A program made the translations under genes and the position numbers. Of a stretch of DNA of 64,000 bases, positions 14,609-34,332 are shown piece after piece. Below the pieces are notes generated by a model. It was not told the DNA's origin. It did no database searches and saw only the letters and a program-made list of their open reading frames with translations. The number at the start of each line of letters is the position of its first letter. The first letter of the stretch is position 1. The stretch comes from Sporopachydermia quercuum (taxonomy: Eukaryota): positions 186,001 through 250,000 of the forward strand of contig BCGN01000001.1 in NCBI GenBank assembly GCA_001599295.1. The letters run 5' to 3'.

Positions 14609-15370
14609 TTTTCTTACAATCTCGAGTTGGCAAATCGGTTCTTCAATTTCTAGTAAACAAAAAGATAAAGCCTTTCGTCTTAGAATTAATAAGCAGAGGA
14701 AGCAAACGCGAAAATGAAAAGTAAAGCACAATTGATCGTACTCTATCTGTCTCNTTCACTACTCCCTTAGTTACCTGTTTGTACTTTGTACAATGATTAA
14801 CTCCAATCTATGGTTTGAAAGGCTTTAATTGGGCAATGGGTGTATTGATTGATATATTGATAATGTAATTAGCTATTTATCTGTGACAGGAGACTTCAAG
14901 TCATATTATTATTGTTCCTCGGCTTCTAGGGAATTGTTTCCATATTGGGTAGTGTCGGTTATTTCTTCAGAGGCAAAAAGCGGAATAGATATATATCTCT
15001 TGAATGTGTTGTACCTCACATCTTTTTATTAACATAAGCAAAGAAAACTGTGGGTGAGTTCATGCGGTATGAGACTCAATTAACAAGGGGGGAATTGATG
15101 AAAGGTTTGAGTCATTGGACACATAGAATCAAATATAAATGGTGACGATAAAATAACTATTGGTAGAGGAAGGCACGTTTAAGGAATGGTCTGAATAATA
15201 TATTCTTTTATGGATATTGAGCCGATGGAGTATAGTAAGGAATTCTTTTATTGATATAGAGAGATCAAAACGGATCAAACAGTTAGAACCAAGAAGGCTA
15301 AAACATATTGAAGCTTAAATAAGCATACATAAAAGTTAGGAATCAACTGCATATTAAGAAGACGCACAAA

Positions 15371-16540
15371 ATGTCTGGTATCTTTCCCGGTGGTGATAAC
15401 TGTGGACCATCAAATCCTCTGCAACAACTACAGAAGCATACACAACAAGATAGAACGTTGCAACAAGAAAGCTCAGGAAGATTCAACCAGCAAGGCTTCC
15501 GCTCAGAAGCTCATAGTGTGAATTCAAGACTAGAACGAGAATTTTCACAATTTAGTAATAACAATGATCCTATGAACAACGCAGGATTAGGTATGAAACC
15601 TGTTCAGNACCAAAGTGTATATGCACAACCAGCAACCCAACAGAGACAACCACTAACCAATGATTGGTCTTCAGATTTTGCGAAACTGCAAATAGGCCAA
15701 CAATCTCAAAGAGCACAATTAGGAATCCCTGTTCAACATCGAGAGCCTCAGCAAGCAAACAATCAATGGCAAAATGAATTTCTGGTTCGGTCAACAATAC
15801 AGCCAACACCTCAAACGCAATTCTCAGCTCCTGCACACATGCCTATGATGGGTAACTTGGCATATGGTCAAATGAATTCTACATCACGGTTTCAAACAAC
15901 TCCTGGTATCGCCCAACAAACGGAACATCAACAGGTCCATTCATTGGAGAAGCAAGAAGCCTTATTTGAAAAGGCTTTTGCTCAAGTGGAAGCGTCATTG
16001 GCACCTACGGTTGAAACAAGAAACGACACGACGGAAGCCGAACAGAAAAGAACTCCACAGATAAATCATATACCTACGCAAGAAGAACAACAGCAACAAT
16101 TACACGATAATCCTGATAATGAACAGTTAGCTAAAGTTGCTGGCCATATTGTTCAGGCAATGAATAATCCNAACGTAGGAGTTTCTACAGAAACATTTGA
16201 AAAGTTCAAACAAAGCCAATTTCTAAGTTTAATGCAGCAGGTAAGTTCCCGCCAAATCAAATTAAATGAAGAAGGATCAGATTTGGTAGATAATGAGGGA
16301 AAATCAGCTGGTACTGCGGAACCTGTGGAGGCTCCTACTATTACTCACGACAAAGCTCACCATTTACTTCCAGACACAATCCATGAAAATACACTAGGCG
16401 ATCCTTTGGCAAATGTTCCTCAAAATAACAATCTTTCATCCTTTGCAATAGCTCAACAGGCAATGAAAGGTGAAATCAAGTCAGATGCTTGGGATGAAGT
16501 CTACAATGACTATGCAAATGATGATAATATGATTATATAA
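15371..16540 (+). CDS. PEX20: PTS2 co-receptor peroxin (Pex20/Pex18/Pex21 family)
   Basis: N-terminal conserved Cys (NCGPSNPLQQLQKH..QDRTLQQE), WxxxF/Y motifs (WSSDF, WQNEF, WDEVY), Pex7-binding segment KFKQSQFLSLMQQV; no TPR domain, so not Pex5. Confidence 0.85.
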   Translation: MSGIFPGGDNCGPSNPLQQLQKHTQQDRTLQQESSGRFNQQGFRSEAHSVNSRLEREFSQFSNNNDPMNNAGLGMKPVQXQSVYAQPATQQRQPLTNDWSSDFAKLQIGQQSQRAQLGIPVQHREPQQANNQWQNEFLVRSTIQPTPQTQFSAPAHMPMMGNLAYGQMNSTSRFQTTPGIAQQTEHQQVHSLEKQEALFEKAFAQVEASLAPTVETRNDTTEAEQKRTPQINHIPTQEEQQQQLHDNPDNEQLAKVAGHIVQAMNNXNVGVSTETFEKFKQSQFLSLMQQVSSRQIKLNEEGSDLVDNEGKSAGTAEPVEAPTITHDKAHHLLPDTIHENTLGDPLANVPQNNNLSSFAIAQQAMKGEIKSDAWDEVYNDYANDDNMII

Positions 16541-28294: not shown

Positions 28295-29344
28295 TTATAC
28301 TTTGATATATTTAGTGCCACATCGAAAAGGAAATGAAGTAGTGTNTTCTGTATAATTCGTAGTCAGATCAATGACTTTGTATGATACAGGAGCCACAGAA
28401 GGACATTTGTTTTTTATAGATTTGAGTCTACAACTTTGAATTAAATCCTGTAAAACCGCTTCAAAATCGACTCTGCCGTGTTTACCAATTGAGAATCCTA
28501 TAGCAGCAGAAGCAACTACTAACAACGATACGCCAAATACAGCCGTTGTTATTGTCAGTGGTGTAATATCAACTTTCAGTTTCCTTCTTGTCTTACTATG
28601 TCTTTTTTGACGATGTTTCTTTTTTGATTCTGATCTTTTATGAATAATTATGTTATCAAATGAATTTGAAGAAGATAAGGATGGAGATGAATTAGTAGAA
28701 GCCCTTCCTGAATTAAAACACATCTGAGAGTATAATGAATCTAGCTGGTCTTCCGTTAACATCCTGATGTCATCAACATCTCTCGAAGATTGAGATTTCC
28801 CATTTCTCCATGTTACTCTTTCTCTACCAGCGTTTTCTAGGTTGATGATAGTGCTGAGAGATTCATTCAGTTCAAATGGTTGCGTTCTCATTTTCTGGTT
28901 TATGTCCTTATTCTTTTCTTGCTCCTTCTTCAAATCAATCCAGGAATCTGTTCAACAATACTTGTCAGTAGTTTGCTCAGTCTAAATTGTACTGATTTAA
29001 CAGTAATTTCAATCCTTTCAAATAATCTTACCTCCCAAATCTCTTTCATTGTTCTCTATTCTGAAGTTAGTTTGATTGTAATAAATAATTGAATTGATCA
29101 TGAGGACATTCTTTCTATACCAAAACATACCAATGGCCTTTCTTTCATCCCTNTCAATTGACATCATTGAAGAAGAGTAGTCAAAGGCCACATCTGATCT
29201 TGTAATATCAATGCCCGCCTCCTCTTCAACATAACCATTTTTATCCACAGTACTAGACATCGCCATTATTGTTGAGACATCAAGACTTTCACCCATAAGA
29301 AATTCCTCTGGGGATGCCTCCTCGTGCCATCTTTGATTAGCCAT
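28295..29344 (-). CDS. Uncharacterised 3-exon protein with AIM/LIR-like motif and one C-proximal TM helix
   Basis: Exons 29344-29131, 29055-29032, 28947-28295. Introns GTATGT..ACTAAC..TAG (29130-29056) and GTAAGA..TACTGAC..CAG (29031-28948) join the two ORF-track pieces in frame; TM TITTAVFGVSLLVVASAAIGFSIG. Confidence 0.75.
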
Positions 29345-32991: not shown

Positions 32992-33549
32992 TTTGACCGA
33001 AAAACTATTACTATTAATTAAATACTATCTTCAATTAAAGCAAAAAGTCCAAAGTGAATTTTTTCTTCTTTAAGATAAGTCGATCACAAAGTTACTACAA
33101 TATGAAGCTTTAGTATCTTTATTCATACCTTTCGAAAGAAAACATATAACACTTGGTTCATTAGAAATCTATGCAGCGATTGGGCCAATCATATGGGTAT
33201 AATAGAAATATGTGCCTGAAGATCTTGAGCAAAGTTCCGGAAAATAAAAATAAAAGCGTATTACATAACCATTAAATAAAAAAGTCAGATGAGCTTCTGA
33301 ACACCCGACAGGCCAGAATTACCCAAAATGCATTCTTGTTGGGGAAATGANCACAAGGTTGCAATAAAATGTGCTATTAGTATCTCCACTTCATTGATTT
33401 AATATAGGATAAAAAATACCTTCTATTATCAGGAAATCTACTTCCAAAAGGCTCATATATCGGAGGGTTTACAACCAGAGTTTGTGCTTTTATGCCAATA
33501 CCTACATATTGAAGCCTAGAGATGTTTAGATTNCCATTCATTATTTGCA

Positions 33550-34332
33550 ATGACAGATGTTGTCTTAAATTTAGTGATTGGTCCTGGGGACCAACGTACT
33601 TTCAGAGGTCATCTTGGTCGTGCCAGTGTTACTAGAACTCAAGATAGATTAACTAGAGAGAGATTGGTACATCAGTCTAGCGTTAGAATCAGTCTTGAGC
33701 CAAACCATAACTATGTAGTGCTCAACGAACAAGAATTGCTTGCAGAAGGAAGTATGATACGAGTTGCATTCAACCCAAGTGATGAAAATGAGCTGATATT
33801 TGAAGTTATTCAGCCAAACATATTCTATAGAATTATAAGAGATCAAAACTGGCTGGATGAGTTTGCTTCAAAACTGAAAATGTTTTGTTTTGCGATGACA
33901 TTATCTATGTTGCTATCGCGACTGTTCAAAACAATTATAGAATATGTTTCATTTTCAGAGGATCTTCAAGGTGACTTTAAAGCATTAATATATGCAATGT
34001 CACAAGGACTAAGGGATTTAAATGAAACTACCAGTAATACGACGGAGACAAATCAGAATCAAGAAATTTTTACACCTAAAGTATTGAACTCATTGCTGTT
34101 TCGGTTTTGGAATGTTCTGACTGTTGATGGAGGAATGGATGCAGATTGGTGGCTTACCAAAGCTACAGCGTTTGCAGTATATTTTTCATATGCATATACA
34201 GCATCAACCATAGTCGCAACATCTGCATTATTCTACTGCTGTTGTTTTGGCCGAGTAGCTTTGAAGCGATGGGGACACTTACTAAGATTTGTTGCGCAGC
34301 TTTACGAGGAAGAATGGAGACGACACCTTTAG
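33550..34332 (+). CDS. Membrane protein resembling Asi2 (inner nuclear membrane Asi ubiquitin ligase subunit)
   Basis: Intact 260-aa ORF with TM segments; motifs SFSED, LLFRFWNVL, K.....VYFSY....T..T...FYCCC...V.LKRW recalled as similar to S. cerevisiae Asi2 (by eye only). Confidence 0.55.
   Translation: MTDVVLNLVIGPGDQRTFRGHLGRASVTRTQDRLTRERLVHQSSVRISLEPNHNYVVLNEQELLAEGSMIRVAFNPSDENELIFEVIQPNIFYRIIRDQNWLDEFASKLKMFCFAMTLSMLLSRLFKTIIEYVSFSEDLQGDFKALIYAMSQGLRDLNETTSNTTETNQNQEIFTPKVLNSLLFRFWNVLTVDGGMDADWWLTKATAFAVYFSYAYTASTIVATSALFYCCCFGRVALKRWGHLLRFVAQLYEEEWRRHL

Follow-up and report, generated by a model that had tools for sequence, protein, structure and literature searches.

A candidate membrane-anchored autophagy receptor gene of the yeast Sporopachydermia quercuum and its probable relatives in an unnamed family of filamentous fungi

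Does a small, apparently orphan gene of the budding yeast Sporopachydermia quercuum encode a receptor for selective autophagy? The gene lies on the reverse strand of a stretch of 64,000 nucleotides (nt), referred to as the window throughout (assembly GCA_001599295.1, contig BCGN01000001.1, positions 186,001 to 250,000), and its product is predicted to carry the hexapeptide DSWIDL, a candidate Atg8-interacting motif (AIM), ahead of a single membrane helix. We found the same type of motif, mostly next to an apparent intron at the same codon, across an unnamed protein family of filamentous ascomycetes (Pezizomycotina), and the yeast gene is very probably a divergent homologue of this family. We further lean, with only modest confidence, towards the combined reading that this homology holds and that the family comprises membrane-anchored selective-autophagy receptors.

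The filamentous-fungal family and its conserved motif

A degenerate pattern for the family's central block retrieved 105 metagenome loci that translated to one family, and a profile built from 38 of these loci matched 1,874 database proteins at E<=0.01 (8,000 scored). A filamentous-fungal family with SWVEI, LRASLSTLL and a membrane helix, to which the earlier note had pointed, thus exists. Named proteins among the 120 matches listed came from filamentous ascomycetes and were entered as hypothetical or uncharacterised, a few of them with automatic labels; a Neurospora member used as query in the ESM Atlas recovered only hypothetical Ascomycota clusters, and no Pfam family fitted the 38 proteins.

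Conservation of the central block in the 105 loci is a product of the search itself; the tryptophan motif lay outside the search pattern. It has the form D/E-S-W-[IV]-[ED]-[IVL] and was found in 71 of the 105 loci, the remaining 34 having just 59-654 nt of sequence upstream (two of these, with 517 and 654 nt, may or may not carry the motif). Its serine and tryptophan were invariant across the 38 aligned loci. Of 247 partly redundant database proteins in which 110 or more residues precede the block, 207 carried the motif and one carried S-W-F-E-I, while 39 appeared by eye to start downstream of it. The conservation of SW[IV][DE][LI] that the earlier note had asked after is therefore near-invariance within the filamentous-fungal family, whereas no other yeast homologue was retrieved.

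Between the motif and the second conserved block, family proteins have an acidic linker of 121-216 amino acids (aa). Five short members (L030, L070, P0188, P0247 and P0299, the named ones from Tricharina and Sphaerosporella) are without the linker motifs FxPQPNAFSHPP and SSQEEYEE and keep the tryptophan motif, the central block and the helix, so the linker can shrink and is not strictly defining. The family helix has a Kyte-Doolittle maximum of 1.88-2.40 and is followed by a basic tail of 45-60 aa with a median charge of +3 (positive in 78 of 79 proteins).

An intron also appears to mark the motif. Of 41 non-redundant loci, 32 showed a YAG of acceptor type whose G is the first base of the D/E codon in the motif; at other D/E codons this was so in 103 of 1,543 cases (6.7%). 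Six of the nine loci without YAG look like spliced transcripts. One of these, L059, equals the genomic locus L042 minus a 75-nt intron exactly at the D/E codon of the motif, which proves the intron for this pair. The L042 intron and the first predicted intron of the yeast gene are each 75 nt long, in frame and stop-free, and intron-retention isoforms are possible in both genes. Public gene calls of family members (within L003-L082 and P0002-P0303) often begin inside or after the conserved intron, so that database versions are often wrong on the N-terminal flank of the motif; the P0056 call begins at a methionine in the presumed intron and P0087 seems to read through it.

The yeast gene as a probable divergent homologue

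A hidden Markov model (HMM) built from filamentous-fungal loci only ranked the third exon of the yeast gene first among 905 open reading frames (ORFs), with 22.0 bits versus 6.2 for the next, and none of 1,955 scored global shuffles reached this value (maximum 8.9). Two internal blocks were aligned by hhalign with a pairwise E value of 3e-5 and a probability of 73. The yeast protein and the family share the order of their elements, from the motif through two blocks to the basic tract and then the helix. The predicted second intron of the yeast gene matches the family intron in codon, terminal base and phase, a coincidence that a rough count without regard to splice-site bias puts at about 2 in 890 positions. 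The yeast helix (Kyte-Doolittle maximum 2.26) and its tail (net charge +5) lie inside or near the family ranges. Bare W-x-x-[LIV] is frequent in the genome's own ORFs (196 of 528), and the fuller pattern D/E-S/T-W-I/V-D/E-hydrophobic occurred in one of the 528, namely this gene; the identical hexapeptide DSWIDL is found in four family proteins. When the yeast sequence was included in an 82-sequence HMM the score rose to 27.6 bits, reached by 3 of 2,000 local shuffles, a partly circular result.

Several observations weigh against this homology. The ORF ranking was made on a sample of 664 kb, or 4% of the genome, and 21 of 2,000 locally shuffled copies reached the HMM score, so that much of the signal is layout and composition. 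Scored singly the blocks were weak (3.1 and 6.9 bits); block 2 and block 3 alone scored at least as high in the membrane helix as where they align, a spurious antisense ORF reached 30.7 versus 33.5 in the block test, for which the blocks had been picked with the query in view, and the membrane block alone gave an hhalign probability of 8.9 and a weak helix likeness. The yeast spacing from motif to block 2 is 26 residues versus 121-216 in the family, the acidic linker being gone; because of this mismatch we class the gene as a probable divergent homologue only. Bridging yeast homologues were not seen, the named proteins among the best 120 of 288 matches all being from filamentous ascomycetes, and no ORF of the window had a match at the 105 family loci within flanks of 1.8 kb.

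Direct searches agreed in finding no close relative. Exon 3 gave noise only against Pfam, no match at E<=0.1 for 110-350 aa among 135 candidates, none at E<=0.001 by phmmer over 1.84 billion representatives, no usable match in the ESM Atlas and no confirmed relative among 139 metagenome stretches. A family member used as query had no match in the S. quercuum genome, and the best BLASTP result of the yeast protein was E=0.015, in a small database.

Predicted gene structure, protein and locus

The predicted splicing joins three exons into 891 nt, coding for 296 aa plus stop (Table 1). The earlier note had proposed this model together with a motif whose aspartate codon spans the second junction and a single C-proximal membrane helix, and each of these is present in the sequence: the coordinates hold, the Asp codon is divided G/AT, exons 1 and 3 score as coding-like in the proposed frame only (intron 1 is neutral), and there is one hydrophobic segment. 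The donor, branch-point and length style of both introns is that of the genome's ATG8 introns. A pattern of this style, composed after viewing the two introns of this gene, occurred 44 times in 600 kb (both strands) versus 29-36 times in shuffles, and two of the occurrences fall within the 1.05-kb gene. The further idea that splicing hides the motif from the ORF track held in part. The ATG-start track does miss DSWIDL because the first methionine of that frame is residue 20, but the raw genomic frame also reads the motif (stop-to-stop ORF 28295-28951) because the G of the acceptor restores the Asp codon. Alternative forms are possible, with intron 1 retained (321 aa) or exon 2 skipped (288 aa), and both would keep the motif, so that only the acceptor at 28948 matters for it. 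Splicing of intron 1 to an alternative acceptor at 29061 was rejected, as was a transcript that keeps intron 2, since each leads to an early stop.

Table 1. Features of the candidate receptor gene and its predicted product (positions in the window)
Feature	Positions	Strand	Remarks
Exon 1	29344-29131	(-)	codes for aa 1-71 and 1 further nt; N-terminus acidic and rich in Ser; one N at 29153; assigned from coding-like codon score and hydropathy
Predicted intron 1	29130-29056	(-)	75 nt; GTATGT...ACTAAC...TAG; in frame, stop-free
Exon 2	29055-29032	(-)	24-nt micro-exon; N-terminal flank of the motif
Predicted intron 2	29031-28948	(-)	84 nt; GTAAGA...ACTGAC...CAG; phase 1, within the Asp codon of DSWIDL
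Exon 3	28947-28295	(-)	stop codon included; a single N, at 28345
DSWIDL, candidate AIM/LIR	28931-28947	(-)	aa 80-85; FIR consensus also fits; proposed from motif conservation, consensus in PMC7615515 (in excerpt) and weak complex prediction
LNESLSTII	28844-28870	(-)	aa 106-114; aligns with family block LRASL[ST]TLL; L, S, L and T kept
IRMLTEDQL	28742-28768	(-)	aa 140-148; aligns with family block LRLVPES; runs into a predicted helix
Basic tract	28574-28639	(-)	aa 183-204; immediately N-terminal to the membrane helix
Predicted transmembrane helix	28484-28555	(-)	aa 211-234; sole hydrophobic segment, Kyte-Doolittle maximum 2.26

A Kyte-Doolittle scan of the yeast protein detected no hydrophobic leader and no other hydrophobic segment. 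Net charge is +11 over the 30 residues that precede the helix, and because 62 residues come after the helix the predicted protein is not tail-anchored. AlphaFold2 modelled the exon 3 product as mostly disordered with three helices (mean predicted local distance difference test score, pLDDT, 57; predicted template modelling score 0.25). The Cys-Ala run that follows the LRASL block in the family is not kept.

The genome comprises 16.4 Mb on 15 contigs with a guanine-cytosine content of about 35%. Its Prp43 matches PDB 3kx2, from baker's yeast, more strongly (875 bits) than 5d0u, from Chaetomium (830 bits), as fits a budding yeast. It is translated by the standard code, since CTG codons sit at conserved leucine positions in 4 of 4 cases. 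Both ATG8 and ATG11 are encoded, and the candidate receptor gene is present as a single copy. Its neighbours on the reverse strand encode a Git3-type glucose receptor (24309-22636) and a FAR-17a/AIG1 protein (27145-26294), and a split ORF with a weak Pga1-like match, also on the reverse strand, lies at 31352-30604. Elsewhere in the window, a 270-aa open frame on the forward strand (33520-34332) is hydrophobic in its C-terminal half and matched nothing in Pfam at E<=1. A Gln-rich ORF of 405 aa (15323-16540, forward strand) has an N-terminal-proximal cysteine and W-x-x-x-F motifs; its start resembles that of Pex5/Pex20-type peroxisomal co-receptors, which makes it a candidate for this group.

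Proposed function, rival explanations and meaning

AIMs, or LC3-interacting regions (LIRs), read W/F/Y-x-x-L/I/V and are directly preceded by acidic or phosphorylated residues (PMC7615515 and PMC5792711, both in excerpt), and the FIP200-interacting region (FIR) consensus is D/E/S/T-D/E/S/T-hydrophobic-x-x-I/L/V (PMC7615515, in excerpt). The family motif fits the latter as well, with a fixed tryptophan, I/L/V at +3, acidic residues at -2 and +2 and serine at -1. These positions hold family-wide while the flanks drift, and the likeliest role of the motif, on the predicted cytosolic side of the single helix, is to dock Atg8. With basic residues directly ahead of the helix and no leader, the extended, disordered N-terminal portion would face the cytosol. 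The tryptophan and the hydrophobic residue at +3 would dock into two pockets of Atg8, the motif might serve as AIM and FIR at once and also bind the claw of Atg11, and the serine at -1 could act as a phospho-switch as in BNIP3/NIX. Clustering of the receptor on an organelle would then recruit the phagophore. If the protein is a receptor, we judge the mitochondrial outer membrane its most probable target, at slightly better than even chances, followed at about one chance in four by the endoplasmic reticulum or nuclear envelope and, a little lower, by the peroxisome, because the helix is moderately hydrophobic and its flanks are positively charged.

A complex predicted between the N-terminal 36 residues encoded by exon 3 and a stand-in Atg8 scored 0.41 versus 0.02 for the best control, with a partner pLDDT of at least 46 and runs agreeing in at least 52% of contacts. 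This structure-prediction check, proposed in the earlier note, gave weak support for binding, obtained with a stand-in. In calibration, 51 of 78 solved pairs and 2 of 108 mismatched ones passed the threshold, but the range up to 0.60 held only 5 of the 78 solved pairs together with all 4 mismatches, of 180, that passed. Some points count against the docking site and the receptor function: the stand-in (L170) is 63% identical to exon 3 of the genome's own ATG8 and was run without alignment, the calibration set holds no peptides, a textbook pair such as AIM and Atg8 can pass because the prediction model already knows it, and the yeast protein has neither an Atg11-type (I/V)LS motif nor the serine run that follows the motif in the family.

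ATG8-like sequences were also seen outside the yeast. Two ATG8 genes on contigs labelled as bacterial bins, one with fungal-type introns (L169, 445-846) and one intronless (L170, 403-879), look misbinned. In addition, 85 stretches of viral contigs (L171-L250), many from giant-virus bins, encode ATG8-like proteins that are 49-70% identical to exon 3 of S. quercuum ATG8, many of them open across the whole fold.

In layout, the proposed receptor is best read as working like BNIP3/NIX, Atg43 or Atg32, with homology to BNIP3/NIX and Atg43 undetected. BNIP3 and NIX share with it an N-terminal S-W-V-E-L LIR, a phosphorylatable serine at -1, one helix and a cytosolic N-terminal region. They end shortly after the membrane helix, whereas the yeast protein continues for 62 aa. 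Their -1 serine is phosphorylated (PMC7615515, in excerpt), and they have a second, WIPI-binding motif (MER region) and form dimers (PMC12339401, in excerpt). The BNIP3 family PF06553 had no match in the gene, the 38 family proteins, 20 membrane segments or the genome (searched with no positive control), and sequence searches of the PDB gave noise only. The description of the protein as BNIP3/NIX-like consequently stands for layout and for a S-W-[IV]-[ED]-type motif, but not for membership. Atg43 of Schizosaccharomyces pombe tethers Atg8 and likewise has an N-terminal AIM, a dispensable linker and a C-terminal helix, but its AIM is confined to Schizosaccharomyces whereas the motif described here is family-wide (PMC7609059, in excerpt); PF08589, the Atg43 C-terminal region, had no match in the gene, the family or the genome, the last again with no positive control. 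Atg32 and Atg39 of Saccharomyces cerevisiae are membrane-anchored receptors whose AIM likewise lies in an N-terminal region facing the cytosol, but Atg32 has an Atg11-binding (I/V)LS (PMC5792711, in excerpt) that the yeast protein is without.

Three other explanations have to be weighed. The yeast gene might be an unrelated orphan membrane protein in which a low-complexity layout has converged and the motif arose by chance. The empty direct searches in both directions, the local shuffles and the missing synteny speak for this, but exon 3 ranks first among the ORFs by a wide margin, the fuller motif is confined to this one ORF and the predicted intron falls at the same codon and phase, and we consider a chance resemblance quite improbable. 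Barely more credible in our judgement is that the family consists of receptors while the yeast copy is reduced, having lost its Atg11-type site and driving no selective autophagy alone. Here the absent acidic linker, the eroded block 2 and the lack of (I/V)LS, versus a loose D/E-x-[IVL]-[LM]-[ST]-S-S pattern in 39 of 61 family proteins, would fit. Yet the six-residue motif is exact despite its diverged surroundings and recurs unchanged in family proteins, and Atg43 binds Atg11 inefficiently and works via its AIM alone (PMC7609059, in excerpt).

It is rather unlikely, but less so, that the gene is a true homologue whose tryptophan motif binds a partner other than Atg8, such as a trafficking adaptor, a motor or a nuclear-envelope partner; in that case the basic tract could serve for nuclear localisation, and function could reside chiefly in the LRASL block. 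This block is conserved at least as well as the tryptophan motif, partly by selection, and the fungal-wide part of Atg43 has a mitophagy-independent role (PMC7609059, in excerpt), which sets a precedent for proteins of this type acting outside autophagy. The WolfPSORT prediction for the Sordaria macrospora protein SMAC_02823, introduced below (nucleus 14, cytosol 6, mitochondria 3), points the same way and away from a receptor. Against this explanation, conservation of the motif follows the AIM/FIR rules position by position, and we continue to favour an Atg8-binding receptor. A far-reaching version of the receptor reading is offered only tentatively, as a doubtful possibility: the family might represent the ancestral integral-membrane receptor for mitophagy, and possibly pexophagy, in filamentous ascomycetes and budding yeasts, either a fungal counterpart of BNIP3/NIX or an unrecognised deep homologue. 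It would have been retained throughout Pezizomycotina, be reduced in S. quercuum and have given way to Atg32 in baker's-yeast-like lineages, and its AIM would have been overlooked because the conserved intron interrupts the codon directly ahead of it and this end is missing from many gene calls.

One family member is already in print as a possible Atg32-like receptor, in a single table row. Kueck & Stein 2021 listed 27 motif-picked Atg32-like candidates of S. macrospora, among them SMAC_02823 with the LIR SWVEI, the acidic clusters EED and DDD, the Atg11-binding region (A11BR) SSSS and a C-terminal helix (PMC8226480, Table S1). These motifs are those of the Sordaria brevicollis family member P0080, which suggests that SMAC_02823 belongs to the family. 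It was marked 'exclusively in euascomycetes', and the authors favoured SMAC_04227 (PMC8226480, in excerpt), a protein of more than 730 aa by its phosphosites that we rejected as a published family member. Also rejected were MoAti1 of Magnaporthe, a SUN-domain peripheral protein (PMC10938464, in excerpt), and AeiA of Aspergillus oryzae, which has no membrane helix and carries a C-terminal microbody signal (PMC12005406). Both resemble the proposed receptor as Atg8-binding selective-autophagy proteins of filamentous fungi. No functional study of the family or follow-up of SMAC_02823 was found in the open literature, and none appears in the available parts of three reviews (PMC9980689, PMC13377003, PMC13208281); prior characterisation is possible in subscription journals or under Neurospora and Aspergillus gene identifiers, which this search did not cover.

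The present analysis adds that motif and intron are conserved across the family and that a budding yeast has a probable homologue, which suggests that SMAC_02823-type proteins are not limited to euascomycetes. A 2021 perspective reported no detectable Atg32 or BCL2L13 homologue in filamentous ascomycetes (PMC8226480, in excerpt), and the mechanisms of selective autophagy in these fungi were described as largely unknown in 2023 (PMC12005406). In the papers covered, the Atg8-binding proteins described from these fungi, MoAti1 and AeiA, are without a membrane helix. The evolutionary evidence raises one entry above the rest of the 27-gene motif list, and the family would thus represent one specific candidate for an organelle-recycling receptor in moulds, with a motif and an intron that may be common to a budding yeast.
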